DNA from: Alphaproteobacteria bacterium
GTDB lineage: Bacteria; Pseudomonadota; Alphaproteobacteria; MPNO01
Assembly (NCBI GenBank): GCA_965202905.1
Contig: OZ241868.1
Coordinates: 1,353,699 to 1,417,698, forward strand
Direction of reading: 5' to 3'
DNA: 64,000 nt
The notes beneath the pieces are model-generated. The model was not told the DNA's origin. It worked only from the letters and a program-made list of their open reading frames with translations, and did no database searches. A program made the translations under genes and the position numbers. Shown here in pieces: positions 1-46,805 of the stretch (positions within the stretch are counted from its first letter, which is position 1; each line of letters begins with the position of its first letter).

Positions 1-64
1 CCGCTGGTCGAGGAAGACTTCGCGTGACGCCGCTTCCGCGCCACCGGCCGGGCCGATAGGGGCC

Positions 65-1792
65 GTGCGGGCAATCCTGACCATCTTCTTTCGGGCCGAG
101 GACACGCGGCCGTGGCTGGTGCTGCTCTGCCTTGTCATCGCCGGCGCGCTGGGCAGTGTCGGCTGGGCCAGCCTGCTTCCCCTGCTCTCGCTCTCGACCG
201 GCGGGCTGGAGAACGATTCCTCGCTGCCGACCAGCCTGGTCCGCGACGGCTTCGCGGCGGTCGGCCTGGCGCCCAGCGTCGGTTCGCTGATCATCCTGGC
301 GGTCGGCAGCATCGCCTTGAAATGCGTCGTCCTGATGCTGGCGATGCGCTATGTCGGCTATACGGTCGCGACCGTCGCCACCCGGATGCGCGTCCGCCTG
401 ATGGATCAGCTCCTCCTTGCGCGCTGGAGCTATTTCACCCAGAAGCCGATCGGCCGGATCGCCAACGCGATCAGCAACGACGCCACCCGGGCCGGGGATT
501 CCTACCTCCAGGCGGCGACGTTCATCGGCAACGGCGCCCGGACCGTGGCCTATACGGCGGTGGCGGTGCTGGTTTCCTGGAAGCTCGCGCTGCTGGCGCT
601 GTGCATAGGCGGGGCGATCGCGGCCTCGCTCAGCGTGCTGGTCCGCATCACCCGCAAGGCCGGGCTGCGGCAGACCCAGCGGACATCGGAGCTGGTGACC
701 TATCTGAGCGATGCGCTGGGCAACATCAAGCCGCTGAAGGCGATGGCCCGCCAGGAGAGCTTCGCGCGGCTGAGCCAGGACAGGATCGCCAGGCTGCGCA
801 ACGCGCTCAGGCGCCAGGTGATCTCGAATCACGCGCTGAAGAATGCCCAGGAAATCCTGATCTCGATCTGCATCGGCGTCGGCTTCTATCTCGGCGTGAC
901 GATCTGGGAGGTGTCGTCTGCCGAGCTGGTGGTCATCGGGCTGTTGATGTTCCAGACCATCCTCAGCGTCGGGCGCATGCAGCAGCAGTTCCAGAAGACC
1001 CTGCTGCTGGAAAGCGCCTATCTGTCGCTGCAGGCCCTGATCGAGGAGGTCGAGGCGGCGCGCGAGCCGCTCGGCGGTATCCGCGCGGCGGTGTTCAACG
1101 AGGCCTGCCTGCTCGATGGGGTAAGCTTCGCCTACGGCGACCGGCGGGTGCTGGACGACGCCTCGATGGAGATTCCGGCACGCGGCGTGACCGTGTTGAC
1201 CGGCCCCTCGGGCGTCGGCAAGACGACGGTGAGCGACTTGGTGCTCGGGCTCTGCCGACCCGACCGCGGGCGGGTGACGCTCGACGACATGGCGCTGGAG
1301 GAGATCGACCTCGAGAGCTGGCGGGGCCAGATCGGCTACGTCCCGCAGGAGCCTGTTCTTTTGAACGACACGGTTCGCGCCAACGTCACCCTCGGCGATT
1401 CGGCAATCGGCGAGGACCGGATCTGGCGGGCGCTGGAGGCCGCCGGCGCCGAAGCGTTCGTCCGCGCGCTGGAAGACGGGCTCGGCAGCCCGGTGGGCGA
1501 GCGCGGCGCGATGCTCTCCGGCGGCCAGCGCCAGCGCATCTCGCTCGCCCGGGCGCTTGCGCGCCGGCCGCGCCTGCTGATCCTCGACGAGGGAACCGCC
1601 GGGCTCGACCCGGCGACCGAGCTCGGCATATGCGCGACGGTCGCCGGCCTGGCCGATGAGATGGCCGTCCTGGTAATAACCCACGGCGCCGTCTGGGAGG
1701 CCTACGCCAACCGCGCCTACCACTTCGAGGATGGACGGATTGAGCGCATCGACCCGTTCGCCCGCGCGCTGAAGGCTTCGTCGATCCGGTGA
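65..1792 (+). CDS. ABC transporter fused permease/ATP-binding protein (MsbA-like exporter)
   Basis: 575-aa ORF; hydrophobic N-terminal half; C-terminal Walker A GPSGVGKT, ABC signature LSGGQRQRISLARAL, Walker B LLILDE. Confidence 0.85.
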   Translation: MRAILTIFFRAEDTRPWLVLLCLVIAGALGSVGWASLLPLLSLSTGGLENDSSLPTSLVRDGFAAVGLAPSVGSLIILAVGSIALKCVVLMLAMRYVGYTVATVATRMRVRLMDQLLLARWSYFTQKPIGRIANAISNDATRAGDSYLQAATFIGNGARTVAYTAVAVLVSWKLALLALCIGGAIAASLSVLVRITRKAGLRQTQRTSELVTYLSDALGNIKPLKAMARQESFARLSQDRIARLRNALRRQVISNHALKNAQEILISICIGVGFYLGVTIWEVSSAELVVIGLLMFQTILSVGRMQQQFQKTLLLESAYLSLQALIEEVEAAREPLGGIRAAVFNEACLLDGVSFAYGDRRVLDDASMEIPARGVTVLTGPSGVGKTTVSDLVLGLCRPDRGRVTLDDMALEEIDLESWRGQIGYVPQEPVLLNDTVRANVTLGDSAIGEDRIWRALEAAGAEAFVRALEDGLGSPVGERGAMLSGGQRQRISLARALARRPRLLILDEGTAGLDPATELGICATVAGLADEMAVLVITHGAVWEAYANRAYHFEDGRIERIDPFARALKASSIR

Positions 1793-3192: not shown

Positions 3193-4578
3193 ATGCCGGA
3201 CGATGTCCCGGCGGGCGGTCGCTACGACCCGCGCGCTCACCAGATGATGACGTTCCACAATCGCGTGCCCGCCTTCCGCGAAGGCGCCGACAGCCCGCGC
3301 GCGCTGCTGGAGCGCTGCCTAACGGCGATCGGCGCGCGCGAAGACGAGATCATGGCCTGGGAGGTGATCGCGGACGACGCTGCCCGGGCCACCGCCGACG
3401 AGGCGACCGCGCGCTATGCCGCCGGCCGGCCGCTGTCGCCGGTCGACGGGCTGCCGATCGGCATCAAGGACCTGATCGAGACAGCGGACATGGCCACCGA
3501 GTTCGGCAGCGTTCTCTACGCCGGTCACCGCCCGCTCCAGGATGCGGCCTGCGTCCATGCGCTGCGCGAGGGCGGGGCGGTGATCGTCGGCAAGACCGTG
3601 ACCGTGACCTTCGGCGGCGGCGATCCGGCGCGCACGCGCAACCCGCACGACATTGCCCGGACGCCCGGCGGCTCCTCGGCCGGCGCCGCCGCCTCGGTGG
3701 GCGCAGCCACGGTGCCGGCCGGGATCGGCACCCACGCGCGCGGCTCGACCATCCGCCCGGCGAGTTTCTGCGGCGCCTTCGCGCTCAAGCCGACTTTCGG
3801 GGCAATCAACCGCCAGGGCGTCTTTTCGGCCGCCCACAGCATGGATCACCTCGGCGCCTTCGCCGGCTCGCTGTCCGATGTCTGGATCATCGCGCGCCAC
3901 ATGGCGCGGCTTGCCGGCGGGGATCCCGGCCATCCCGGGCTGTATGGCGGCGCCGCCCCGCCCGCGCCGCGCAAGCCGCAGCGACTCATCCGGCTGGACA
4001 CCGCCGGCCGGGCCGAGACCGACGAGCGCACCGCGGCGGCTTTCGAGAACGCGGTCGAGGAACTGGCCTCGGCCGGCGTCGCCGTTTTCGCGCGCGGCGA
4101 CGATCCCGCCATCGAGGCCTACGAGCGCGCGCTCGCCGAAGTCCCCGACCTGTGGCGCAACCTCTACCGGTTCGAGATGCGCTGGCCGATGCTGCAGCTT
4201 CTCGCCCGCTACCCGGAACAAATCCCGCCGCGGCTCAAGGCGGGGCTCGAAGAGGGCGCCGGCATGACCCAGGAGACCTATCGCGAGGCGCTGGTCCGGC
4301 GCGCCCACTTGCGCGCGCTGCACCGCGAACTCGCCAACCGCGCCGACGGATTCATTACCCTGTCCTCGCCCGGCCCGGGCCCGGTCGGCATGGACCAGGG
4401 CAGCGCGATCTACAACGAGGCGTCCTCGGTGCTCGGCGCACCGGCCATCTCGCTGCCGCTACTCGCCGTCGACGGCGCCCCGGTCGGCGTCCAGCTCCAG
4501 GGCCAGTTCGATGCCGACGAGGCGCTGACGGCCCGCGGCCTGTGGATCGCCGAGCATCTTCTGGGGCGGGCGGTCTAG
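3193..4578 (+). CDS. amidase (amidase-signature family)
   Basis: 461 aa; GGSSAGAAASVGAATVPAGIGTHARGSTIRPASFCG matches the amidase signature region. Confidence 0.85.
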   Translation: MPDDVPAGGRYDPRAHQMMTFHNRVPAFREGADSPRALLERCLTAIGAREDEIMAWEVIADDAARATADEATARYAAGRPLSPVDGLPIGIKDLIETADMATEFGSVLYAGHRPLQDAACVHALREGGAVIVGKTVTVTFGGGDPARTRNPHDIARTPGGSSAGAAASVGAATVPAGIGTHARGSTIRPASFCGAFALKPTFGAINRQGVFSAAHSMDHLGAFAGSLSDVWIIARHMARLAGGDPGHPGLYGGAAPPAPRKPQRLIRLDTAGRAETDERTAAAFENAVEELASAGVAVFARGDDPAIEAYERALAEVPDLWRNLYRFEMRWPMLQLLARYPEQIPPRLKAGLEEGAGMTQETYREALVRRAHLRALHRELANRADGFITLSSPGPGPVGMDQGSAIYNEASSVLGAPAISLPLLAVDGAPVGVQLQGQFDADEALTARGLWIAEHLLGRAV

Positions 4579-4706
4579 TGGATCAACCGAGACATTGAAT
4601 CCCGGCCGATGATGATCTGGCGACCAGAACGCATTCAAATGTCTCGATAAGTTGACCCATCAACAGAAAAACCAGTGGTTCGAAGCGAAAGATTCGAACC
4701 ACTAGG
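4575..4706. repeat. MITE-like repeat, copy A (CTAGTGG termini plus internal 13-bp-stem hairpin)
   Basis: ~93% identical to the reverse complement of 13894-14038; termini ctagtgg...ccactag; hairpin ctagtggttcgaa-gcgaaaga-ttcgaaccactag; overlaps stop codons of amidase (TAG 4576-4578) and the deiodinase-like gene (4702-4704). Confidence 0.8.
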
Positions 4707-5484
4707 ACATACCCGCCGCCTCCTCCTCGGTCTTGTAGTAGTTGCCGGGCACGCGGGGGGCCACATCCTGCGAGGGCGCGGCGCGGCGGTCGCCGGCGTT
4801 CTTGAGCATCACCCGGTAGTCCTCGACCGCCTGCGGGCCGGCGCGTTCGAGGCCTGCCTGGAAGCCGGCCCGGTCGCGGGTGCTCCAGGCGCTGCGCTCG
4901 GAATAGAACGGCACCCATTGTTGCTCGATGCGTCTGTCCTGGAAATCGAGCACGTTCTCGAGCGCCTCCTCGACATCGGCGGCGCCGGTCCAGGCGGATT
5001 TGTAGTGGATGAACCCGCCGCGCCCGATGATCCAGGTCATGTTCGGCAGCATGCCATAGGTGCGGTGCGCAGCGCCGACGAGGTCGTCCAGAAGCACTTG
5101 GCGCCTGAGGCCCGAATACTCGACGAAAGCCCGCGCGACGGCGCGCTTGTCCTCCATCGACGTGTGGTGGCGGTAATTCTCGCCCGGATGGGCCTCGCGG
5201 GTGTAGACGAATACCGAGCGCACGGCCCGGTCGGCGTAGCGGCTGGCGAGTGCCTCCATCGGCTCGGCCGCCATCGCGCAGAAGGGTCAGGTGAACGAGC
5301 CGAACTCGAGGATCGCAACACCCCTCCGCCACAGGGAGTTCATCTCCACCGTCTCGCCGGTCGCGAGATCCTCCAGCGGGAAGGACGGCGCGCGCATGGT
5401 CGCCTTGGGCGCGTGGGCCGCAAACGCCTCGAACTCCTCGCTGCCGCCGGCGAATACGCTGTAATTATATTGGGCCGCATCCAT
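4702..5484 (-). CDS. iodothyronine deiodinase-like thioredoxin-fold protein, candidate selenoprotein (in-frame UGA at 5287-5289)
   Basis: ORF 4702-5274 (starts at annotated M of ...PFCAMAAEP) is preceded in the same frame by TGA and then 65 codons (MDAAQYNYSV...ILEFGSFT) from ATG 5482-5484, which has an AGGAGGA Shine-Dalgarno sequence upstream; the joined sequence FGSFT-U-PFC plus downstream YTREAHP matches the deiodinase active-site region. Confidence 0.55.
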
Positions 5485-5751
5485 TGAACTCGGGTCCTCC
5501 TCTGTCTCCGACCCGTGAAATAGGGCGGTTTTTCGCGCCCGAACAGCATCGGGCGTCAAGATTTCGTGCGCCGCGGATCGCGGTATCGCTCGATCGGCGC
5601 GTCCGGATCGAGGCTGTCGCCCGGGCGCGGCCGCGCGTGAACCGGGCGAACAGCCCAGCGCCCGCGATCGTTGCCCCGCCGCCGGTCGCCGCCGGTACGG
5701 CGCGAACGGAAGATGCGCTAGACTTGGCCGATCGCGACGAGGGAGGCTCCG

Positions 5752-7143
5752 ATGACCGGCACGACGGCAATCCGCGCCCGCTGGGCTCTGACCTGGGACG
5801 GCAATGCGAGCCGCATCGAGACCGACCGGTGGATCCTCGTCGAGGGCGCCCGCATCGCCGCGGTCGCCGACGCCCGCCCGGACGGTGCCGACCGCATCAT
5901 CGACCGGCCGGACACGCTGGTCGCGCCGGGGTTGATGAACATGCACAATCATGGGATCTCGGCGCTCCTGTTCCGCGGCATCGCCGAGGATCGGACGACC
6001 GCGTCCTGGGCCTCCGATACGGTCTACGGCCTGATCATGCCGCTCCAGGGCCTCGCGATGGAGGTGCTGGACGCGGCGGAGTTGCGGGCGGTCACCGCGC
6101 TCGGCTTCCTCGCGCCGCTGAAGAGCGGGGCGACCACGGTGATGGACACTTTCCGCCTCGGCCAGGCGGTGAGCTTCGAGGTCGCAGCGGAGATGGGTTT
6201 CCGGCTCTACGGCATGCCCTACATCTTCTCGACCGAGGATTTGGCGATCGGCGCCGACGGGCTGCCGGTCTATGCCGTGCGCCAGGGCGCGCAGAGCGAT
6301 CTGGAGCGCTGCCTTGGCCTGTTCGAGGCTTATGACGGCGGGGCCGACGGGCGGCTCAGAGTCGGGTTCGGCCCGCACGGCGTCGATACCTGCGATCCCG
6401 AACTGCTGGCCGCGATCCGCGATGCGGCGCGCGAACGCGGCGCGAAGGTCACCATCCACATCTCGCAAAGCGCACCCGAGGACGAGACCGTGCGCGGGCG
6501 CTACGGTCGCTCGCCGGCCGAGCAGCTCGGCCATCTCGGCCTCCTGGGCCCGGACCTGCTCGCCGCGCATTGCGTCTATGCCAGCCGGGACGATCTCGCG
6601 CTGATCGCGCGGTCGGGGACCGCGGTGGTGAACTGCCCGGCTTCGTTCGCCCGCGGCGCGGTGTCCGCGATCTGGCAGCGGACGAGGGATTTGGGGATCA
6701 CGACCGCGATCGGGCTCGACGGGTATTCGATGGACATGGTGGGCGAGATGCGCATGGCCGCCATCGTCTCCAAGCTTGCCACCGGGCTGTCCGAAAAGGC
6801 CGCCGCCTGCGATCTGGTGAGGGCCGCGACCCTCGACAGCGCCGCCGCCCTCGGCCGGTCCGATCTCGGCCGCATCGCGCCGGGGGCGACGGCCGATCTG
6901 GCGGTCTTCGACATGTCCGGCGCGCATCTGGCGCCGGTCAGCGATCCAATCAAGACGCTGGTCTGGCACGCCAACCCGGGCGATGTGGCCGCCGTCCTGG
7001 TCGACGGCGCCATCGTTGTCGAGGACGGCCGCCACCTGCTGGTCGACGAGTCCGCAATCGTCGAGGCCGGCGCCGCCGCCGTCCGCAAAGTCTGGGCCGA
7101 GGGGCTCGAGAGGGGCCTGATCCGGGAGGGCGAGGTTCTTTAG
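5752..7143 (+). CDS. amidohydrolase-family protein (TRZ/ATZ- or SsnA-like aminohydrolase)
   Basis: 463 aa; N-terminal metal-binding motif LVAPGLMNMHNHG; overall TIM-barrel amidohydrolase-like organisation; GGGAGG Shine-Dalgarno sequence before ATG. Confidence 0.75.
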   Translation: MTGTTAIRARWALTWDGNASRIETDRWILVEGARIAAVADARPDGADRIIDRPDTLVAPGLMNMHNHGISALLFRGIAEDRTTASWASDTVYGLIMPLQGLAMEVLDAAELRAVTALGFLAPLKSGATTVMDTFRLGQAVSFEVAAEMGFRLYGMPYIFSTEDLAIGADGLPVYAVRQGAQSDLERCLGLFEAYDGGADGRLRVGFGPHGVDTCDPELLAAIRDAARERGAKVTIHISQSAPEDETVRGRYGRSPAEQLGHLGLLGPDLLAAHCVYASRDDLALIARSGTAVVNCPASFARGAVSAIWQRTRDLGITTAIGLDGYSMDMVGEMRMAAIVSKLATGLSEKAAACDLVRAATLDSAAALGRSDLGRIAPGATADLAVFDMSGAHLAPVSDPIKTLVWHANPGDVAAVLVDGAIVVEDGRHLLVDESAIVEAGAAAVRKVWAEGLERGLIREGEVL

Positions 7144-7181
7144 CGCAGGACCGGCGTCACCTCGGCAACCGCGCCGCCGGC

Positions 7182-7766
7182 TCAGCGCAGGCCGTCTTCG
7201 CCCTTGACCTCGGACACGGTCAGGCCGCCGACACGGGGGAAGGGGCGGCCGGAATCGGTCACCGCGATGGCGACCAGGATCTCGTCGGCGCGCGGGGCGT
7301 CGCACACGCGCACCTCGACGCCGTCGAAATGGCTGCGCACATAGGCCGCGTCCTTGTGGCCGAGCGGGATGTCGATCGCGCTGCCGGGGCCGCCCAGCTT
7401 CTTGACCGAGGGGACCAGCGCCGCGCCCTTCTCGACCGCCTCGCGCAGCGGCGCGCCGAGCTTGGGGTGCAGGATCGCCGCGGCATGCTCCCATTCGCCG
7501 CGCTCGCCGACGATGGCGGCCTTGCCGAAGCTCTCGGCCTGGCCGGGCTGGATGCCGAGCGCGTTCACGCACATCTCTCCCAGCATAGCGCCGAGCTCGG
7601 CGCCGATCTCCATCAGCTCGTCCAGATCCTCGACATAGCGGCCGGCAAAAGGGTTCCTGACGACGGCGATCGCCGCGGCCTTGCGGGTGGGCGGGTCGAC
7701 CGGCCGGCCCATGTCGGTCCGCGTCTCCTCGACGATCACACTGGTCTTGCGGATCTCTGCGCTCAT
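7182..7766 (-). CDS. 'amino acid synthesis' family protein (PF06684-like)
   Basis: MSAEIRKTSVIVEETRT...AAIAVVRNPFAGRYVEDL...GKAAIVGERGEWEHAAAILH...IDIPLGHKDAAYVRSHFD matches this family as I recall it; start chosen at the second Met so that it abuts the stop of the upstream Rieske gene. Confidence 0.65.
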   Translation of the reverse strand: MSAEIRKTSVIVEETRTDMGRPVDPPTRKAAAIAVVRNPFAGRYVEDLDELMEIGAELGAMLGEMCVNALGIQPGQAESFGKAAIVGERGEWEHAAAILHPKLGAPLREAVEKGAALVPSVKKLGGPGSAIDIPLGHKDAAYVRSHFDGVEVRVCDAPRADEILVAIAVTDSGRPFPRVGGLTVSEVKGEDGLR

Positions 7767-7767
7767 C

Positions 7768-8787
7768 TCAGGCCTCGGCTTCGATGCGTTGGGCAATCTT
7801 GCGGCGGAACAGCATGGCCGACGCGTCGAGGTCGAGCCCGACGCGCGGCCCGCCTTCGTAGCCGTCCTCCTCGCGCTGGATCTCCTCGAGCACCGCCTTG
7901 TCCTCGGCGAAGGCGACGCGGAACTGCTCGGAGATCGCCTCGCCCACGCTTGGATCCCCGGCGGCGAAGTTGCGCACGTGCAGCCAATAGTCGAGGCAGC
8001 TCGTCCCGGTCTCCGGCGTCATGAAGTGGCAGGAGAACAGCCGGATCGCGCTCTGCAGGTTGCCTTCGCGCGCACCCGCCCCGGCCGGCGCGGTGCCCAA
8101 ATCGATGATGGATATCGAAGGCGTGTACATCAGATAGTACTGCCAGCGATCGACCTTGCCGGGAAAATTGCCGAACGCCCGGGCGAGCCCGGACGGCTCG
8201 GAATCGAGCGTCCAGCGGTGGGTCGTCACCCCCCAGTCCCGCTCCTCGTATTCGACCGGGACGCCGACTCCATCCGGGCTGCCGAGCGTCGTCGGGTGGA
8301 CGTATTCGACGTGGCTCGGATCGCACAGGTTGTCGCACAGCAGCAGATAGTCGGCCGCGACATGCAGGGCGTCGCCGTGGGCGACACCCCAGCCCGGCTC
8401 GTGGTATTGGGGCAGGTCGTAGATCTCGCTCTCATCGGCCTTGTCGGGCTCGCCCATCCAGATCCACGCCAGACCGAGCCGATCGGCCATCGGGTAGGAT
8501 CGGACGCGGGCGTTGGGCGGGATCACCTCCTGGCCGGGCGCCTTCACGCAGGTCCCCGCGGCATCGAACACCAGCCCGTGATAGCCGCACTGGAGTGTAT
8601 CGCCGACCAGCCTGCCGCGCGACAGCGGCAGCAGCCGGTGGGGACAGCGGTCGCGCAGCGCGACCGGCGCGCCGTCCTCGGTCCGGTACATGACCACCGC
8701 CTCGCCGAGGATGGTCCGGCGCTGGAGCGACCGGTCGAGCTCACTGGACCACGCGGCGACGTACCATGCGTTACGAACGAAGGCCAT
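7768..8787 (-). CDS. Rieske [2Fe-2S] non-heme iron oxygenase, alpha-subunit-like (VanA/PobA-type)
   Basis: Rieske motif CPHRLLPLSRGRLVGDTLQCGYHG; catalytic-domain motif DNLCDPSHVEYVHP; ~339 aa, typical of single-component-type oxygenase subunits. Confidence 0.85.
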   Translation of the reverse strand: MAFVRNAWYVAAWSSELDRSLQRRTILGEAVVMYRTEDGAPVALRDRCPHRLLPLSRGRLVGDTLQCGYHGLVFDAAGTCVKAPGQEVIPPNARVRSYPMADRLGLAWIWMGEPDKADESEIYDLPQYHEPGWGVAHGDALHVAADYLLLCDNLCDPSHVEYVHPTTLGSPDGVGVPVEYEERDWGVTTHRWTLDSEPSGLARAFGNFPGKVDRWQYYLMYTPSISIIDLGTAPAGAGAREGNLQSAIRLFSCHFMTPETGTSCLDYWLHVRNFAAGDPSVGEAISEQFRVAFAEDKAVLEEIQREEDGYEGGPRVGLDLDASAMLFRRKIAQRIEAEA

Positions 8788-9073
8788 CTCGGGCTCCCCC
8801 GAATCTCGCTGTCCGTGAATGAGAACCTTACCCGATTATTCGTATGTGTACAAACAATTTTCAGTCGCAGCGGCGCGGTGCGATCCAGCGGTGCGATCCA
8901 GCGGCGCAGGCAGCGCGGCGTCATCGCGAACAGGGCCGCCCGAGCCGAACTATATCGTCGGGCCGGAGAGACGCTTCGGCAGTATAGTGCCGCGCAAGGC
9001 GGCACTGCGGAAATTTCATAACGAAGGGTTGACGACTCCGGGCGTACCCCGGGCCGTGTAAAGGAATCGCAGG

Positions 9074-12000
9074 ATGCGAAACGAATTCCAGGCCAAGGCC
9101 GAACGCATCGAGTCGCTCGCCGCGAAGGCGCACAGACGCAAAGGCGTAGAGGCCGCCCGGTTCCTCAAGCGTTTCTACGAACAGGTCGCGCCGCAAGACC
9201 TGCTGCCGCACGCCGAGCCGAGCCTGATCGGCGGCGCGTTGTCGGCTTGGCGGCTACTGCGCTCGCGGATGCACGGAACGTCCCGGGTGCGCGTGTTCAA
9301 CCCCGACAAGAAGGCCGACGGCTGGACCTCGCCGCACACCGTCGTCGAGATCGTCAATGACGACATGCCGTTCCTGGTCGATTCGGTCGCCGCCGAGATC
9401 AACCGGCAGAACCTGTCGATTCACCAGGTGATCCATCCCGTCGTCCATGTCCGGCGCGACCGCGCGGGACGGCTCAAGTCGCTGCTGGAGTCCCCGGCCA
9501 TGGACGACGGCGCGACGGCCGAATCGGTGATGCATTTCGAGATCACCGAGCTGCGCCGGCCGGAAACGCTGGAGCGGCTCCAGGAAAGCCTGGAAAAGGT
9601 CCTCCAGGATGTGCGTGCCTCGGTCGAGGACTGGCGGGCGATGCGGGTGCGTGTCGCCGAAATCGTCGTGCTCTTCGACGAGACCCCGCCGCCGGCGCCC
9701 GATGCCGACCTCGACGAGGCCAAGACGTTCCTGCGCTGGCTGGACGAGCGCAATTTTACCTTCATCGGCTATCGCGAATACGATTTCGCCAGCGACCGGG
9801 ACGGCGCCACGCTGTGGCTGCGGCCGGAATCCGGCCTGGGCGTGCTGCGCGATCCGAAGCAGAACGTGCTGACCGGGCTCGCCGACGGCGCGCTCGTGCC
9901 GGCCGACGTCGCCGCCTATATCCTCGAGCCCCGGGTGGTGATGGTCTCAAAGGCCAACGGGCGTTCGCGGGTGCATCGGGCGGTGCATCTGGACACGATC
10001 ATGGTCAAGAAGTTCGACGCCGGGGGTACGGTCACCGGCCTGCAAATCTTCGTCGGGCTGTTCACCTCCTCGGTCTACCACCAGCCGCTGTCCGACATCC
10101 CGGTGCTGTCCCGCAAGGTCGACAGCGTGATCGCGCGCGCCGGCTTCCGGCCAGCCAGCCATGACGGGATGGCGCTGCTCAACATCCTGGAATCGCTGCC
10201 GCGCGACGACTTGTTCCAATACTCCGACGAGGACCTGCTGGCGACGGTTCTCGGCGTGCTGAACCTTCAGGGACGCCAGCGGGTGGCGCTGTTCGTGCGC
10301 CGTGATCCTTTTGGGCGGTTCGTGTCCTGCCTGATCTACATGCCGCGCGAGCGCTACACGACGCAGATACGCGAACGCATGCAGCAGATCGTCGAGGAGG
10401 GCTTCGGCGGCCCGGTGTCGGTGTTTTACGTCCAGGTCTCCGATGCACCCCATGCCCGGCTGCAGTTCATCGTGCGCATCGAACGCGAGCGCGAGCCCGA
10501 TCTCGACGAGATCGAGCGTCGGCTGGTCGAGACCGGCCGCGACTGGCGCGACGAGTTCAGCCGGGCGCTGGTCGCCGCCCGTGGCGAGGCGGAGGGTCTG
10601 GAGATCTTCGACCTCTACGCCGACGCCTTCCCCGCGAGCTACCGGGAACGCAACGGCTCCGTTGTGGCGCTGCGTGACCTCGCAAAGATCGAGGCGGTGC
10701 TGGCCAGCGGCGAGATCGCCGCCGACCTGTACCGCCCCGACGAGGGGCCCGACAACCGGATCCGGTTCAAGGTCTATAACCCCGACAATCAGATGGCCCT
10801 GTCCGACGTCCTTCCGCGGCTGGAGAACATGGGGTTGCGGGTGATCGACGAGTTCTCGCACCGGGTCCTCCGCGCCGGCGCCGGGCGCGAAGTCTGGCTC
10901 CACGATTTCGGCCTGGAGACCAGGCTCGGCCGCGCCGTCGACTTCGATCGGGTCAAGCCGAATTTCGAGGCATTGTTCACCGAAGTCTGCCGCGGCGCGA
11001 TAGAGGATGACGGGTTCAACGCGCTGGTTGCGGCAACCGGCCTCGACGCCAGGCAAGTCTCGGTGTTGCGCGCCTATTGCAAGTATCTCCGCCAAGCGGC
11101 GATCCCGTTCAGCCAAGCCTATATGGAAGCGACGCTCCTGGCCAACCCGCGGATCGCCGGGTCGATCGTCGCCCTGTTCGAGGCGCTCTACGATCCCAAT
11201 GCCGAGGACCGGCGCGAGCGCCGGATCAAGACCTTGCTCGGCAAGATCGAGACCGCGCTCGATGCGGTCGAGAGCCTCGATCAGGATCGGATCCTGCGGC
11301 GGTTTCTGAACGTCGTGCTGGCGACGCTCAGGACGAACTACTATCAGAGCGACGCCGACGGCGCGCCGAAGCCCTGCATTTCGTTCAAGATCGACTCGCA
11401 TGCGGTCGACGGGCTGCCCGCGCCGGCGCCGCTGGTGGAGATCTTCGTCTATTCGCCGCGGGTCGAGGCGATCCACCTGCGCGGCGGCAAGGTGGCGCGC
11501 GGCGGCATCAGGTGGTCGGACCGGCGCGAGGATTTCCGCACCGAAATCCTCAGCCTGATGAAGGCGCAGATGACCAAGAACGGCGTCATCGTCCCGGTCG
11601 GCGCCAAGGGCGGCTTCGTGGTCAAGCGGCCGCCCGCCGATGGCGCGCGCGAGGCGTTGCAGGCCGAAGGCATCGCCTGCTACCGGACGATGATGTCGGG
11701 CATGTTGGATCTGACGGACAACCTTATGCCAGGCGGGCTGGTCCATCCCGAGCGCGCGGTCCGCCGCGACGGGGACGATCCCTATCTCGTCGTCGCGGCC
11801 GACAAGGGAACCACGACCTTCTCGGACATCGCCAACGCCGTCGCGCGCGACTACGACTTTTGGCTCGACGACGCCTTCGCCTCGGGCGGCTCCGCCGGCT
11901 ACGACCATAAGCAAATGGGGATTACCGCGCGCGGGGCCTGGGAGTCCGTCAAGCGGCATTTCCGCGAGATCGGCATCGACACCCAGACCCGGGATTTCAC

Positions 12001-13897
12001 CTGTGTCGGGATCGGCGACATGTCGGGCGACGTCTTCGGCAACGCCATGCTGCTGTCGCCCCACATCAGGCTGGTCGGCGCGTTCAATCACCTGCACATC
12101 TTCATCGATCCCGACCCCGACCCGGCCGCAAGCCTGTGCGAGCGCAGGCGGCTGTTCGCGCTGCCGCGCTCGTCCTGGTCGGACTACGAGGCGGCGCTGC
12201 TCTCCAAGGGCGGCGGCGTCTTCGAGCGCGGCGCCAAGTCGATCAGGATCACGTCCGAGATGCGCGCCTGTCTCGGCCTGTCGGCCGGCGGCGCGATGAC
12301 TCCCAACAACCTCATCCGCGCGATGCTCAAGGCGCCGGTGGACCTGTTGTGGTTCGGCGGGATCGGCACATACGTCAAGGCCCGCAACGAAGCCCATGCC
12401 GAGGCCGGCGACCGGATCAACGATGCGCTCAGGGTCGATGCGAACGAGCTGCGCTGCCGTGTCATCGGCGAGGGCGCCAATCTGGGCTGCACGCAGCGCG
12501 GCCGGATCGCCTACGGGCTTGCCGGGGGCCGGATCAACACCGACTTCATCGACAACTCCGCCGGGGTGTCGACATCCGATCACGAGGTCAATATCAAGAT
12601 CCTGCTGGGCGAGGTGATGGCCGCGGGCAAGCTCTCGCGCAAGAGCCGCGATACGCTGCTGGCCGAGACGACCGACGAGCTTGCCCGGCACGTCCTGGTG
12701 GACAACTACCGCCAATCCATGGCGATCACTCATGCCGAGGCCCGCGGGAGCGCGCTGATCGGCGACGCGGCGCGGCTGATCCGTGCGCTCGAGCGCGCCG
12801 GCCGTCTCGACCGCGCGGTCGAGTTCCTGCCCGACGACGAGACGCTGGCGGCGCGGCGCGCGGCCGGGCTCGGCCTCACCCGGCCGGAGATCGCCGTCCT
12901 GCTCGCCTATTCCAAAATGACGCTCTACGACGAGATCCTGGCCAGCGACGTGCCCGATGACCCCTTCCTGGTCCACGATGTCGGTCTCTACTTCCCGGGG
13001 CCGCTGCGCTCGAAATTCGCCGCGTTCGTCCCGGGCCATCGGCTGCGGCGCGAGATCAGCGCGACCTATATCACCAACAGCTTCGTCAACCGGGTCGGGC
13101 CGACCTTCGTCGGCGAGGTGAGCGAAAAGACCGGCGCCTCGCCCATCGAGATCGCCAAGGCCTACCTGATCGCACGACAGATCTTCGGATTGCATGCCCA
13201 TTGGGCCGATATCGAGGCGCTCGACAACAAGGTCGCCGCCGCGGTGCAGACCGGCCTGAACCTCGATGTTCACCGGCTGGTCGAACGGGTGACGATCTGG
13301 ATGCTGCGCAACGGCCCGAGACCGCTGGACGTGACGCGCGCGATCGGACAGTACGGCGTCGGGATCGCCGGCTTGGCCGACGGCATGGACCGGCTCATCC
13401 CCACCGATCTGCGCGCCGGCGTCCGGGCCGCCGCCGAAAGCTCTGTCGAGCGCGGCGTCCCCCGCTCGCTGGCGCGACGGGTCGCCGCCCTGGAGGTCCT
13501 GTTCTCCGGCTGCGACATCGTGCGGATCGCCGCCGACGGCGGGCATTCGGCGTCCGATGTCGCCGAGGTCTATTACGAGATCGGCCGCCGGCTGAGCCTC
13601 GATTGGCTGCGTCGGGCCGCCGAAACCCTGCCGGTCGAGACCGACTGGCACGCGATGGCCGCGGCGGCGATCGTCGAGGACCTCTACGCCCTGCAAAGCA
13701 GGCTGGCAGTACGCATCATGGACACTTGCAGCGGCGGACCCGGCGGCAACAGCGCGATCGAGGCGTGGTGCGCCGGCAACCGGTCCCGCTTCGATCGCGC
13801 CCGGGCCATAGCGGCCGACCTGCGCGCCGCCGGCGCCGCCGATCTTGCCATGCTCACGGTGGCAAACCGCGAGGTCCGCGCGCTACTCGGCCGCTAG
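9074..13897 (+). CDS. gdhB: NAD-specific glutamate dehydrogenase, large (~1600 aa) bacterial type
   Basis: 1607-aa ORF; size and conserved blocks are typical of the 180-kDa NAD-GDH family found in Pseudomonas and alphaproteobacteria. Confidence 0.9.
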   Translation: MRNEFQAKAERIESLAAKAHRRKGVEAARFLKRFYEQVAPQDLLPHAEPSLIGGALSAWRLLRSRMHGTSRVRVFNPDKKADGWTSPHTVVEIVNDDMPFLVDSVAAEINRQNLSIHQVIHPVVHVRRDRAGRLKSLLESPAMDDGATAESVMHFEITELRRPETLERLQESLEKVLQDVRASVEDWRAMRVRVAEIVVLFDETPPPAPDADLDEAKTFLRWLDERNFTFIGYREYDFASDRDGATLWLRPESGLGVLRDPKQNVLTGLADGALVPADVAAYILEPRVVMVSKANGRSRVHRAVHLDTIMVKKFDAGGTVTGLQIFVGLFTSSVYHQPLSDIPVLSRKVDSVIARAGFRPASHDGMALLNILESLPRDDLFQYSDEDLLATVLGVLNLQGRQRVALFVRRDPFGRFVSCLIYMPRERYTTQIRERMQQIVEEGFGGPVSVFYVQVSDAPHARLQFIVRIEREREPDLDEIERRLVETGRDWRDEFSRALVAARGEAEGLEIFDLYADAFPASYRERNGSVVALRDLAKIEAVLASGEIAADLYRPDEGPDNRIRFKVYNPDNQMALSDVLPRLENMGLRVIDEFSHRVLRAGAGREVWLHDFGLETRLGRAVDFDRVKPNFEALFTEVCRGAIEDDGFNALVAATGLDARQVSVLRAYCKYLRQAAIPFSQAYMEATLLANPRIAGSIVALFEALYDPNAEDRRERRIKTLLGKIETALDAVESLDQDRILRRFLNVVLATLRTNYYQSDADGAPKPCISFKIDSHAVDGLPAPAPLVEIFVYSPRVEAIHLRGGKVARGGIRWSDRREDFRTEILSLMKAQMTKNGVIVPVGAKGGFVVKRPPADGAREALQAEGIACYRTMMSGMLDLTDNLMPGGLVHPERAVRRDGDDPYLVVAADKGTTTFSDIANAVARDYDFWLDDAFASGGSAGYDHKQMGITARGAWESVKRHFREIGIDTQTRDFTCVGIGDMSGDVFGNAMLLSPHIRLVGAFNHLHIFIDPDPDPAASLCERRRLFALPRSSWSDYEAALLSKGGGVFERGAKSIRITSEMRACLGLSAGGAMTPNNLIRAMLKAPVDLLWFGGIGTYVKARNEAHAEAGDRINDALRVDANELRCRVIGEGANLGCTQRGRIAYGLAGGRINTDFIDNSAGVSTSDHEVNIKILLGEVMAAGKLSRKSRDTLLAETTDELARHVLVDNYRQSMAITHAEARGSALIGDAARLIRALERAGRLDRAVEFLPDDETLAARRAAGLGLTRPEIAVLLAYSKMTLYDEILASDVPDDPFLVHDVGLYFPGPLRSKFAAFVPGHRLRREISATYITNSFVNRVGPTFVGEVSEKTGASPIEIAKAYLIARQIFGLHAHWADIEALDNKVAAAVQTGLNLDVHRLVERVTIWMLRNGPRPLDVTRAIGQYGVGIAGLADGMDRLIPTDLRAGVRAAAESSVERGVPRSLARRVAALEVLFSGCDIVRIAADGGHSASDVAEVYYEIGRRLSLDWLRRAAETLPVETDWHAMAAAAIVEDLYALQSRLAVRIMDTCSGGPGGNSAIEAWCAGNRSRFDRARAIAADLRAAGAADLAMLTVANREVRALLGR

Positions 13898-14038
13898 TGG
13901 TTCGAATCTTTCGCTTCGAACCACTAGTTTCATGTTGATTGATCAACTTATCGAGATATTTGAATGCGTTATGGTCGCCAGATCATCATCGGCCGGAGGC
14001 TTCACCAGGGGATTCAAATGCCTCGGTTGATCCACTAG
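13894..14038. repeat. MITE-like repeat, copy B (inverted relative to copy A)
   Basis: Reverse complement aligns to 4575-4706 with one 15-bp indel; the gdh stop codon TAG 13895-13897 lies in the terminal CTAG; the last ~31 codons and stop of the SDR gene (13943-14038) are encoded by the repeat. Confidence 0.8.
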
Positions 14039-14905
14039 CGCGGCCAGCCCCTCGCGGTAGCTCGGGTAGCGCAGCGCGACGCCGAGTTCCTGCTTGATCC
14101 GCCGATTGCACACCCGCCGGTTCTCCGAATAGAACCGCTGTGCCGCCGGTGACAGATCGGCGGTCTCGAAGGGTTCGGCCGCTGGCGGCTCGATGCCGAG
14201 CAGGCCGGCCGCATGTGCGATGACGACGGGCTGGGCCGCCGGTTCGTCGTCGCAGACATTGTAGATCGCGCCTGAGCGCGGCCGCTCCATCGAGGCCAGC
14301 AAGACGCCCAGGATGTCCGCGACATGGATTCTCGAGAACACCTGTCCCGGCTTGACAATGCGCCGAGCCGAGCCGGCGCGAAGCCGTTCCAGCGCGTTGC
14401 GGCCAGGGCCATAGATGCCGGCCAGACGGAAGATGTGGACGGGAATGCCGTTCATCGCACCCAGCTTCAGCCACGCGCCTTCGACCGTCAGCCTGCGCAG
14501 GGCGGGCTCGGTGGCGGGATCCGGCGCCGTGGTTTCGTCCACCCAGCCACCGTCGCGGTCGCCGTAGACGCCGGTGGTCGACAGGTAACCGATCCATTCC
14601 AGCGCGCTGGCCGCGGCGATGTCCCTGCCGTGGTGGACGAGCGCGGGATCGCCGTCATCGCCCGGCGGGATCGAGGCCAGCAGGTGGGTCGCGCCCGAAA
14701 GAGCCTCGCCGCCGCTCGCCATCGGACGGTCGCCAGCGAAGACATGGGCCTCGATCCCGCGCTCCGCCATCGCCGCGACGGACCGCTCGGTGCGCCGGGT
14801 GCCGGCGATGCCGCGCCCGGCGGCGGCCAGATGTCCCGCGACATATCCCAGCCCGAAGCAGAAAACTCTCTTGGCGGCGCCGATCACGGAAAGCTCCTTG
14901 CTCAC
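13943..14905 (-). CDS. NAD(P)-binding epimerase/dehydratase (extended SDR) family protein
   Basis: 320 aa; Rossmann-like N-terminus, YxxxK-type region; C-terminal ~31 aa derive from the repeat element. Confidence 0.65.
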   Translation of the reverse strand: MSKELSVIGAAKRVFCFGLGYVAGHLAAAGRGIAGTRRTERSVAAMAERGIEAHVFAGDRPMASGGEALSGATHLLASIPPGDDGDPALVHHGRDIAAASALEWIGYLSTTGVYGDRDGGWVDETTAPDPATEPALRRLTVEGAWLKLGAMNGIPVHIFRLAGIYGPGRNALERLRAGSARRIVKPGQVFSRIHVADILGVLLASMERPRSGAIYNVCDDEPAAQPVVIAHAAGLLGIEPPAAEPFETADLSPAAQRFYSENRRVCNRRIKQELGVALRYPSYREGLAALVDQPRHLNPLVKPPADDDLATITHSNISIS

Positions 14906-24006: not shown

Positions 24007-24093
24007 GCCCAGGTGGCGGAATTGGTAGACGCGCAGGTTTCAGGTACCTGTGACCGCAAGGTCGTGGAAGTTCGAGTCTTCTCCTGGGCACCA
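24007..24093 (+). tRNA. tRNA-Leu (anticodon CAG)
   Basis: GCCCAGGTGGCGGAATTGGTAGACGC...; anticodon loop TTCAGGT; long variable arm; T-arm GGAAGTTCGAGTCTTCC; acceptor stem plus ACCA. Confidence 0.85.
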
Positions 24094-24142: not shown

Positions 24143-24754
24143 ATGAGCGTCGATTTTCACGAGGGCGACCTGCCGGACGGGCTCGATCTCGGCAGCGCGG
24201 TCGCGGTCGATACCGAGACACTGGGGCTGAAACCCGAGCGCGACAGGCTCTGCCTTGCGCAGCTCAGCGCCGGCGACGGCAACGCCCATCTCGTGCAGTT
24301 TCGCCGCGACGCCTACGATGCGCCCAACCTGGCGCGCCTGCTCGTGGACCCGGCGGTCACCAAGATCTTTCATTTTGCGCGCTTCGACGTGGCCATGTTG
24401 GAGCGCTATCTCGGCGTCCGCTGCCGGCCGGTCTATTGCACCAAGATCGCCTCGAAGCTCGCCCGTACCTACACCGACCGCCATTCGCTGAAGGATCTGA
24501 CCCGCGAGCTTCTGGGCATCGAGATCTCCAAGGAACAGCAGTCTTCGGACTGGGGTGCCGAAACCCTGAGCCCGAAGCAGATCGACTACGCCGCCGCCGA
24601 CGTGCTGCACCTGCACGCCATCCGCGAGGCGCTGGACGGGATGTTGACGCGCGAGCGGCGCGGCGATCTGGCCGCAGCCTGTTTCGGGTTCTTACCCGAC
24701 CGCGCGGCGCTCGATCTCGGCGGCTGGGACGATACGGACATCTTCGCCCACTAA
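24143..24754 (+). CDS. 3'-5' exonuclease, short RNase D-like (DEDD family)
   Basis: Start at MSVDFHEG; exo motif I VAVDTETLGL; ~203 aa. Confidence 0.75.
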   Translation: MSVDFHEGDLPDGLDLGSAVAVDTETLGLKPERDRLCLAQLSAGDGNAHLVQFRRDAYDAPNLARLLVDPAVTKIFHFARFDVAMLERYLGVRCRPVYCTKIASKLARTYTDRHSLKDLTRELLGIEISKEQQSSDWGAETLSPKQIDYAAADVLHLHAIREALDGMLTRERRGDLAAACFGFLPDRAALDLGGWDDTDIFAH

Positions 24755-24855
24755 GAACCCGCCGTTTGCCAAGCCACATGGCGAATAGCCCAGATCCGCG
24801 AATGCCCGCTGATGCATGACCGGGCGCCCCACGTGAATCAGAGGTTCCCTGACAT

Positions 24856-30005: not shown

Positions 30006-31030
30006 GGAACCTCTGAATATGTCGGATGGGTGTACAGATTGAGTGCATGATTGTGGCCCGTTCATGTGGAGCTCGCAGTCATGCATCAGCAGACGTTTGC
30101 GATCTGGACTATGACAACAAGAAGCGCAGGACGCGGCGCGAGCGCTTCCTGGAGCGGATGGACAGGTTGATCCCGTGGGACCGTCTTGAGGCCCGGGTGG
30201 TGCCGGACGAGACGACGATCCTGAATTTCCGTCACCGTCTGGAGCATCACGGGCTCGGTCGTGGCCTGTTCGAGGAGATCAACGGCCATCTGGCCGAACA
30301 CGGCGTGATCTTGCGGGCAGGCGCGATCATCGACGCGCGCATCGTCGCAGCGCCGTCGGCGGCGAAGAACAAGGGGAAGGAACGTGACCCGGAGATGCAT
30401 CGGACCAAGAAGGGCAACCAGTGGTATTTCGGGATGAAGCTGCATATCGGCGTCGACAACCGGTTGAGGCCGGCGCACCGCCTGGAGGGCGCGGCGGCGA
30501 ACGTTCACGACCTCACGCCGTCCGCGCAACGCCTGCACGGCGAGGGGAAGGATTTGTCGGCGGACGCCGGCTGCCAGGGGATCGAGAAACGCACCGAATG
30601 CGAGAAACGCCAAGCAGGTTGGCGCATCGCCATGCGGCCGGGCAAACGGCGGGTTCTGGATCCCGACAGTGCGGCGGAGAAAGCCGAGCAGCGGAAGGTC
30701 AGCGTCCGCGCGAAGGTGGGGCATCCGTTTCGGCTGGCGCAGCGGGCGTTGGGGTATGACAAGGTGCGCTACCGGAGGCTGGAGAAGACTATTCGGCGGC
30801 TGGCGCTGCTGCCGGGCTTCTCGAACCCGATGACCGCGCGCCCGATGACCGCGCGCCCGCATCCGGCGTGACAGTGATGGGCGTAGTCTGCCCGGACGGC
30901 CCCCACGGGGCCGATCGGGGCGAAATGGCGACCATTACCGGCCCCGTGAACGCGCTCTCAAGGCGCAAACACCCAACAAACCGCAAAAACCTCCACCGTT
31001 GCGGAAAATACCTCCCAAACCAGAGGGTCC
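30006..31030 (+). mobile_element. IS5-family insertion sequence with ~165-bp internal in-frame deletion
   Basis: Imperfect terminal inverted repeats GGAACCTCTGAATAT (left) and reverse complement GGACCCTCTGGTTTG (right); ~1025 bp, equal to IS5 length (~1.2 kb) minus the deletion; flanks ctga / ctaa resemble the IS5 4-bp YTAR target duplication. Confidence 0.65.
30026..30871 (+). CDS. IS5-family transposase, internally deleted (likely defective)
   Basis: Aligns from memory to E. coli IS5 InsH; ~55 aa missing between WDRLEARV and VPDETTILNFRH; DDE region retained (MHRTKKGNQWYFGMKLHIGVD ... DAGCQG). Confidence 0.7.
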   Translation: MGVQIECMIVARSCGARSHASADVCDLDYDNKKRRTRRERFLERMDRLIPWDRLEARVVPDETTILNFRHRLEHHGLGRGLFEEINGHLAEHGVILRAGAIIDARIVAAPSAAKNKGKERDPEMHRTKKGNQWYFGMKLHIGVDNRLRPAHRLEGAAANVHDLTPSAQRLHGEGKDLSADAGCQGIEKRTECEKRQAGWRIAMRPGKRRVLDPDSAAEKAEQRKVSVRAKVGHPFRLAQRALGYDKVRYRRLEKTIRRLALLPGFSNPMTARPMTARPHPA

Positions 31031-38181: not shown

Positions 38182-38520
38182 CCTCCTCCGGCTGCGACCG
38201 GCGCACGATAGGCGGCGCCCGCCCGGCGCTCAAGGCTTGTGGCGTCGCGATCCGGCCGGCTACGGTCTTTTCTACTCTGCCGCCTCCGCGTGCCCGGAGC
38301 GGTCGGCCAGCGCCGCCGGCGCGCCGTCGTCGGTGCGGAACAGGACGACCGGGTCCTCGCAGATCGTCCGGGCGAGCAGATCCCGGCCGAGATCCCCGGC
38401 GAGCGAGGCGACGCACCAGGCATTGCGCAGAAACATCGGCGCTCTCCATACTGGTCGGCCGCCGCGACCCTGGACCCGGACTCCGCGCGCGCAAGTGCTT
38501 TGACGCGGAGAGAATCGATG

Positions 38521-46648: not shown

Positions 46649-46805
46649 CGACGCGTCGGCAATCGTAGAGACTGCCCGATGTGGCGATTTGGCCCGACCG
46701 GCTTGCGGCCACGAAAAACAACCTGCTAAAAGGTCGGAGGAAATGCAAGCCCGCCGACCGTCCGGTCGGGGGGTTTTTGCTGTGCGCTAGCGGAAGAGGG
46801 ACGGG

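Follow-up and report, generated by a model that had tools for sequence, protein, structure and literature searches.

The 64,000-nt stretch of alphaproteobacterial DNA analysed here (contig OZ241868.1, hereafter the window, to which all counts given for the source genome apply) raises the question of how two nearly identical palindromic sequences, each bounded by CTAG, came to lie in inverted orientation at two separate gene junctions. The answer favoured here, with a probability of about 0.9, is that each copy arose by a separate insertion of a miniature inverted-repeat transposable element (MITE) that derives from an insertion sequence (IS) of the IS630 family, about 1146 bp in length, and that was presumably mobilised in trans. 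That the IS transposase acts on the MITE is inferred from the sequences that the two elements have in common.

Copy A occupies positions 4575-4705 on the plus strand and copy B positions 13894-14038 on the minus strand. Alignment bears out the claim of the original prediction that the inverted copies are ~93% identical, since they are nearly the same along their full length, apart from a single indel of 15 nt towards the apex and a small number of substitutions; copy B has the limits first given for it, and copy A ends at 4705, not at 4706. The pair forms the longest inverted repeats of the window, in which a 28-nt hairpin core and a 25-nt internal block occur exactly twice each (0 of 100 shuffles by chance), and neither the repeat search nor the family profile revealed a third copy in the window. 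Excluding the flanking target bases, the element proper, with the termini 5'-GTGG...CCAC-3', measures 125 bp in copy A (4578..4702, plus strand; nhmmer match to positions 1-133 of the family profile, E=3e-29) and 139 bp in copy B (13897..14035, minus strand; 15 extra nt in the apex; nhmmer E=4e-28). Neither copy has an open reading frame (ORF) of its own, and the only coding sequence that crosses the elements is read-through from a neighbouring gene.

The same element is dispersed through many other genomes. When one genome per species was searched for the hairpin stem, with the loop left unconstrained, 88 loci were recovered, about 60 of which share a common architecture with a typical length of 133 bp: CTAG-TGGATCRAMCnnGACATTTGAgtCC-(variable apex)-TTCAAATGTCnnG-bulge-TTGATCCATCA-A-rich spacer-GTGGTTCGAA-rCGTyAGA-TTCGAACCAC-TAG. 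A profile search identified 54 full-length copies in 16 genomes of Rhodospirillales, Hyphomicrobiales and Rhodobacterales, so the two copies of the window do not stand alone; one metagenome-assembled genome (MAG) alone holds 14 near-identical copies, and a second MAG has 11. With the left end of the MITE (GTGGATCRAMCNNGACATTTGA) as seed, a scan of metagenomes yielded at least 120 loci, and the left-end matches listed comprise 43 MITEs with the canonical hairpin, others that are MITE variants, and about 28 that run into an ORF. At least 90 distinct insertions are represented, of which 54 are the full-length genome copies and the remainder lie on metagenome contigs. The hosts are environmental Alphaproteobacteria, and the family has a wide distribution in metagenomes from soil, peat and sediment. 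Several copies lie at the ends of short-read contigs and break off after about 55 nt of the element, in keeping with a repeat that breaks assemblies, which makes these MITEs a practical obstacle to short-read assembly. No recurrent gene adjoins the elements among the first 88 loci.

Several variants depart from the common layout. One consists of the long stem only, with CTAG at both ends (L068:6484-6577), another of tandem copies with one CTAG in common (L057), and a third of the terminal hairpin of the family fused to a foreign palindromic module (L008, positions 912-990). CTAG-bounded palindromes with the same layout of long stem, A-rich spacer and short hairpin, and a different sequence, were found at L017:6661-6790 and at L050:~50-140 (minus strand). 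Because the elements of L017, L050 and L008 are alike in layout and different in sequence, they suggest that several MITE families have arisen from different CTAG-targeting members of the IS630 family. A full-length MITE was also observed on a 1.1-Mb contig (CAVWTJ010000012.1) of a MAG labelled 'Actinomycetota', which reflects either mis-binning or mislabelling, or a transfer between phyla.

Comparison with element-free relatives, in which the relatives of the protein encoded beside copy B were located on long contigs, provides an unoccupied version of one of the two sites. Copy B lies where an NAD-glutamate dehydrogenase gene (gdh) converges on a gene of the short-chain dehydrogenase/reductase (SDR)/epimerase family. 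The window reads ...GCG-CTAG-(element)-CTAG-CGGCCGAGTAG at this junction, and the corresponding convergent junction of relative L090 reads ...GAGGGG-CTAG-CGGCCGAGTAG and lacks the element; relative L089 likewise has a single CTAG and no element, and in both relatives this CTAG contains the stop codon of gdh. To judge from the sequence, the junction of L090 is thus a clean empty site for copy B. At the junction that corresponds to copy A, relatives encoding a 188-aa protein (83% identical) have the convergent amidase and 188-aa genes side by side, again with no element between them. As element-free relatives preserve the gene order at both junctions, copies A and B are evidently independent insertions and not the two ends of a composite transposon.

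The putative autonomous partner of the MITE emerged from the second, left-end-seeded metagenome scan. This IS, exemplified by L158:1086-2237 (minus strand, both CTAGs included), is 1146 bp long and has a 359-aa ORF, whose product scores 270 bits on the NCBIfam model NF033545 'IS630 family transposase' (cut-off 100) and contains the Pfam domains DDE_3, HTH_23, HTH_32 and HTH_29, the last three being homeodomain-like helix-turn-helix domains. The left 30 nt of the IS are matched at 30 of 30 positions by the MITE of L122, at 28 by that of L034, at 24 by copy B and at 21 by copy A, and its right 22 nt at 20 positions by the MITEs of L034 and L057 and at 18 by both window copies. Full-length relatives of the IS, with 76-79% nucleotide identity, are present on 490 plasmids of Methylocystis, Mesorhizobium, Sinorhizobium, Nitrobacter, Bradyrhizobium and Rhizobium, where they are annotated 'IS630 family transposase'; their right ends read GCGTTAGATTCGATCCAC|TAG, compared with GCGTTAGATTCGAACCAC|TAG in the MITE. 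In all intact IS copies, the transposase ORF extends to the last base of the IS (...GHQVLDSIH), and its stop codon is supplied by the duplicated TA and the flanking G. The partner IS probably belongs to the IS870-like group of Alphaproteobacteria; IS870 of Agrobacterium vitis reportedly needs a CTAG target to complete the stop codon of its ORF. With at least 90 distinct insertions, an empty site and an IS630-family partner with matching ends, the initial view of the repeats as a small, dispersed, non-autonomous, MITE-like element is well founded.

On one plasmid of Rhizobium sp. B230/85 (NZ_CP072159.1), a full-length IS was observed at the stop codon of a gene of the octopine/nopaline dehydrogenase family (L217:1449-1452), and the annotation of this plasmid has the transposase coding sequence and the converging host coding sequence ending in one CTAG.

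Relative to this IS, the MITE retains the left inverted repeat (IRL, about 27-30 nt) and, from the right end (IRR), the final 18-22 nt. Its additions are an inverted copy of IRL, with which the long stem is formed, an A-rich spacer, and a short arm that pairs with IRR in the terminal hairpin. The original prediction had described terminal inverted repeats of 7 bp; the actual repeats are longer and correspond to the ends of the IS, and the flanking TA represents the target-site duplication and does not belong to the element.

The flanking sequences identify the target and the probable length of the duplication. Members of the IS630 family transpose by cut-and-paste with duplication of a TA, which for IS630 itself lies preferably within CTAG (PMC2170065). 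CTAG is present on both sides in 58 of the 90 distinct insertions listed (left side 74, right side 69), and seven of the 90 have a base other than C at the outer left position (TTAG, ATAG or GTAG), with CTAG still found on the right side in the tabulated pairs. An NTAG on the left together with CTAG on the right is predicted for an element with G...C termini and not for a four-base duplication, which favours a duplication of TA. The question raised at the outset, whether CTAG or TA is duplicated, can therefore be answered with a TA inside CTAG, to which the seven NTAG insertions and the single CTAG of the empty site both conform; at CTAG sites, the sequence alone is also compatible with 4 bp. 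In the window, copy A accordingly has a left CTAG at 4575..4578, with a target C, one copy of the duplicated TA at 4576-4577 and the first base of the element as G, and a right CTAG at 4702..4705, with the last base of the element as C, the second TA at 4703-4704 and a target G. Copy B has its CTAGs at 13894..13897 (hairpin end, TA 13895-13896) and at 14035..14038 (IRL end, TA 14036-14037), the latter out of frame for the SDR gene.

Among decayed flanks, CTGG and CCAG are the commonest, both of which are transitions at the TA of CTAG; an internal CCAG in copy A is of the same kind. Very-short-patch repair is the mutational route usually invoked for the depletion of CTAG, and a decay to CTGG and CCAG would fit this route. 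The avoidance of CTAG noted initially is confirmed in the window, which has 17 such sites where base composition predicts 191 and a Markov estimate 68, and five of the 17 fall inside copies A and B.

These features can be combined into a mechanism of insertion. An IS630-type DDE transposase would cut the element out and paste it at a TA, preferably in the context 5'-CTAG-3', duplicating the TA, and the CTAG would be rebuilt at both junctions since the element begins with G and ends with C. CTAG is rare in a genome of about 68% G+C (the value for the window), and the targets that could be traced are TAG stop codons preceded by C, as in the gdh stop of L090 and L089; insertions would therefore be expected to land exactly at gene ends. 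With CTAG rebuilt by the G and C termini, a gene ended by the target TAG would still end on TAG, and a gene whose frame misses the TAG would read on into the element, as does the SDR gene. The family would thus be a clean example of how the choice of target (TA in CTAG, combined with G...C termini) permits insertion at gene ends without destruction of the gene, and the parent IS would obtain its own stop codon in the same manner.

The genes around the two copies follow this pattern. Copy A separates the convergent genes for an amidase (PF01425; ORF 3193-4578, plus strand), whose TAG stop at 4576-4578 lies within the left CTAG, and for a 190-aa protein (ORF 4702-5274, minus strand; homologues P0127-P0129), whose TAG stop is at 4702-4704 on the minus strand. 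Copy B separates gdh (ORF 9074-13897, plus strand; TAG stop at 13895-13897) from the SDR gene (ORF 13943-14905, minus strand). ORFs and Pfam domains thus agree with the earlier placement of both copies at convergent gene junctions, and three of the four flanking genes in the window stop at the TAG of a terminal CTAG; of 108 flanks across the family, about 28 adjoin a long ORF that stops at the terminal TAG. In the fourth gene, the SDR gene, the frame misses the CTAG and translation runs 30 codons into copy B, so that the ancestral end of the protein (...AAE*) is replaced by the element-encoded extension VDQPRHLNPLVKPPADDDLATITHSNISIS (13943..14034, minus strand, by translation), followed by a stop. 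Homologues of the SDR protein, which terminate in ...EGLAALAAE or ...EGLAAE, extend over only 87-89% of the window ORF, and by this comparison the SDR gene has lost three residues and gained 30 from the element. False C-terminal extensions can therefore arise from such elements, and the source annotation counts the 30 element-encoded residues as part of the SDR protein.

Other origins for a CTAG-flanked palindrome have to be weighed against an IS630-derived MITE. MITEPsy1, which duplicates CTAG or YTAA (PMC3189936), provides a precedent for an IS5-type MITE that duplicates the whole of CTAG, with an element proper of TGG...CCA, and the contrast between CTAG-element-CTAG and the single CTAG of the empty site would suit a 4-bp duplication equally well. 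However, the partner with matching ends belongs to the IS630 family and its ORF ends exactly in ...CCAC, followed by TAG, and the seven insertions with NTAG on the left and CTAG on the right in the tabulated pairs would not be predicted, which leaves an IS5-type origin highly improbable. Slightly less probable again is a REP/REPIN-like or IS200/IS605-type (PATE) element that moves as single-stranded DNA through an HUH tyrosine transposase, which would read the hairpins and cleave at CTAG with no duplication. The two hairpins have similar stem bases (TGGATCGAA and TGGTTCGAA) and each lies beside a CTAG, the long stem has a conserved bulge, and both stems show compensatory changes, which speaks for such an element; yet no neighbouring gene recurs among the first 88 loci, the wobble pairs show no strand bias, and the ends are those of an IS with a DDE transposase of the IS630 family.

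The strong predicted structure (z about -4 to -6) and the covariation in both stems might also be taken to indicate a structured noncoding RNA gene or a regulatory element of the 3' untranslated region, non-mobile and vertically inherited. Covariation between inverted repeats is, however, also expected of transposase-binding sites, there is no Rfam match, and the flanking genes are unrelated across the 90 sites listed. Because an empty site exists and the ends are those of an IS, a non-mobile origin appears untenable, and we consider this explanation very improbable. An equally slight probability is given to the arrival of the segment between the copies with a composite transposon, of which they would be the ends, or through a local inverted duplication. 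The copies are indeed inverted, with 9.2 kb between them, but each is flanked by its own CTAG on both sides, and relatives that lack the element keep gdh, from inside the segment, next to the SDR gene outside it, and the 188-aa gene, from inside, next to the amidase gene outside. The bracketed 9.2-kb segment, to which the original prediction had drawn attention, is therefore not a unit, as both of its junctions are ancestral gene neighbourhoods. Two further candidates were rejected: an attC-like site, whose R'/R'' motifs do not fit and which would belong to a cassette array that is absent here, and a tRNA-derived short interspersed nuclear element, the sequence GGTTCGAATC being only superficially similar to a T-arm.

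Several observations weigh against the derivation of the window copies from this IS and against their independent insertion. No clean empty site is available for copy A, as its relatives hold an unrelated GC-rich spacer of 125 nt and both genes stop at TGA. Only two copies have been seen so far in the source, both within the window, and the window-specific loop GCGAAAGA had no match in the metagenomes. The window copies are among those more diverged from the ends of the IS (left end 21-24 of 30), and they may be old and immobile. No IS630-family transposase gene is present in the 64-kb window, and the IS630-family transposases detected in MITE-bearing genomes are only 53% (L067) and 44% (L031) identical to the partner at the amino acid level; the ends of the L031 element (~20-1225) differ from those of the partner IS, yet this element is CTAG-flanked. 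The L067 element (3913-4995) ends in ...CCAATCCAC|TAG with an ORF that extends to the last base, and its left end is broken by an unrelated IS4/IS5-like element. Among the first 88 loci, no full-length partner was found, in that no pairs of ends lie 0.7-3 kb apart, and the only repeat common to these loci was the unrelated IS4/IS5-like end in L067.

The amidase of the relatives ends on the same residues as that of the window (...GRAV), with TGA as stop codon instead of TAG. The 125-nt spacer of these relatives (L092:4568-4692, also in L093-L095) has its own palindromes (CCCCGGATAAGCGCTCCGCGCTTTCCGGGG...) and looks like another class of intergenic repeat at the same junction.

Each copy of the MITE folds into a long imperfect stem-loop followed by a terminal 13-bp hairpin with an 8-nt loop, and the folding calculation, which had been proposed as a check, indicates strong structure (z = -3.7 to -6.0). 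In copy A, the long stem-loop (4578..4660, plus strand; -44 kcal/mol, z = -6) is composed of the IRL-derived arm, the variable apex, the inverted IRL copy and a conserved bulge of 4-5 nt. The A-rich spacer (4661..4671, plus strand), which on the minus strand is a T-run directly after the hairpin, leads to the terminal hairpin (4672..4705, minus strand), with a stem of 13, one mismatch and a loop of 8, followed by TTTTT on the minus strand; the loop and 3' arm of this hairpin are homologous to the IRR of the parent IS. The perfect 13-bp stem described originally is present in copy B; copy A has one mismatch, where the internal CTAG has become CCAG (4672-4675). By the terminator scan, the hairpin of copy B (13893..13928, plus strand) has 14 pairs and a loop of 8, followed by a T-rich tail. 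The terminal hairpin alone has a predicted energy of about -19 to -20 kcal/mol.

Both stems are maintained across the family. The long stem, in which IRL pairs with its inverted copy, shows compensatory changes at five pairs among 30 family members. The terminal hairpin, in which IRR pairs with the short arm that replaces the coding sequence of the IS, was assessed in a sample picked by the left end only and hence unbiased for the hairpin; changes on both sides were found at six of the 13 pairs, such as GTGGTGCGAA/TTCGCACCAC and GGGGTTCG/CGAACCCC, a level of covariation reached by none of 500 shuffles. The 9 nt upstream of the hairpin contain a mean of 5.2 A in the family members, and the opposite strand thus presents a hairpin followed by a U-tract. 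The two top-ranking terminator-like sites between positions 4000 and 15000 of the window are the MITE hairpins, with stems of 13-14 bp and loops of 8, behind which copy A has a T-run and copy B a T-rich tail; these sites lie directly after the 190-aa gene (copy A, minus strand) and after gdh (copy B, plus strand). The suggestion that these hairpins might act as bidirectional terminators thus points to the best such sites of the region, the terminator role itself being predicted.

The right-end hairpin and A-tract, which are absent from the parent IS, look like an intrinsic terminator. Strong selection as a terminator is argued against by the balanced orientation relative to the converging genes (15 left and 13 right, with no bias) and by the wobble pairs, which number 29 GT and 14 AC in the long stem and 14 GT and 18 AC in the hairpin and show no strand bias. 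It is conceivable, if unlikely, that the hairpin arm, which pairs with IRR over 10-13 bp, and the A-tract did not arise by accident at the birth of the MITE and make it a portable, self-inserting terminator that lands at stop codons and that hosts would tolerate or keep for its insulation of closely packed convergent genes, or that the fold-back ends serve an undescribed step of IS630 transposition. Should the hairpin and U-tract indeed stop transcription, the MITE would amount to a mobile terminator.

Other features of the window were observed at a distance from the two copies or between them. An alphaproteobacterial S-adenosylmethionine riboswitch (RF00521, 60.7 bits) at 46671-46749 (plus strand) fixes the broad taxonomy of the window. 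At 24007-24093 and 24754-24837 / 30061-30657, a tRNA-Leu(CAG) gene precedes two inverted-repeat pairs, one of 31 nt (90% identity) and one of 41 nt (78%), that flank about 5.2-5.8 kb, and there may be a small integrated element next to this tRNA gene. A direct repeat of 130 nt with 72% identity (8646-8775 and 38298-38427) probably reflects paralogous genes, because its first copy lies in a VanA-like Rieske oxygenase gene. The 761-aa ORF at 5287-7572 (minus strand) has no Pfam match and is probably not a real reading frame, because the syntenic region of L092 holds a major facilitator superfamily transporter gene and a gene for a 65-aa protein.

The element belongs to an ordinary kind of bacterial mobile element, a MITE from an IS630/Tc1-mariner-type element, and this particular family seems undescribed, because no Rfam model, no plasmid and none of the papers in the library searched matched its sequences: the Rfam search at gathering and E-value thresholds gave no family (snoRNA matches were at chance level, E >=1.4), a BLASTN comparison of three MITE variants with 72,556 plasmids gave no match, and a literature text search for the terminal sequences retrieved unrelated primers only. 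RUP, the repeat unit of pneumococcus, is attributed to IS630-Spn1, and Stowaway is a MITE derived from IS630/Tc1-mariner elements; MITEs of this type are non-coding, about 100-150 bp long and dispersed in intergenic regions, with IS630-type ends and a TA target. RUP with IS630-Spn1 appears to be the closest analogue of the MITE/IS pair described here, although there is no sequence relationship, the hosts of RUP and Stowaway are Firmicutes or plants, and the family of the window differs in its strict CTAG targeting and its added terminal hairpin. Correia elements of Neisseria duplicate a TA target and have known effects on transcription and RNA processing. The Correia-, ERIC- or RIME-like character originally proposed holds for the general appearance, as Correia, the ERIC/IRU elements of enterobacteria and the RIME elements of rhizobia are similarly small, palindromic, dispersed repeats at gene ends, but kinship is not indicated: we know of no cognate transposase for Correia, ERIC or RIME, whereas the family of the window has an identifiable IS partner and belongs with the IS630-derived MITEs. 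MITEPsy1 of Pseudomonas syringae, a derivative of the IS5 family of about 100 bp that duplicates 4 nt, also inserts at CTAG (PMC3189936), but its inverted repeats differ (GGAAGGTCTGAAAAAGCC). The IS630-family elements of rhizobial plasmids share with the MITE their terminal sequences (about 30 nt on the left and 20 nt on the right) and their CTAG flanks with TA duplication, and as the IS transposase takes its stop codon from the target, host genes adjoining the MITE likewise owe to it the G of their TAG. The window elements differ from these IS in their length of 125-139 bp and the lack of an ORF, and the inverted IRL copy, the A-tract and the IRR-complementary arm are found only in the MITE.

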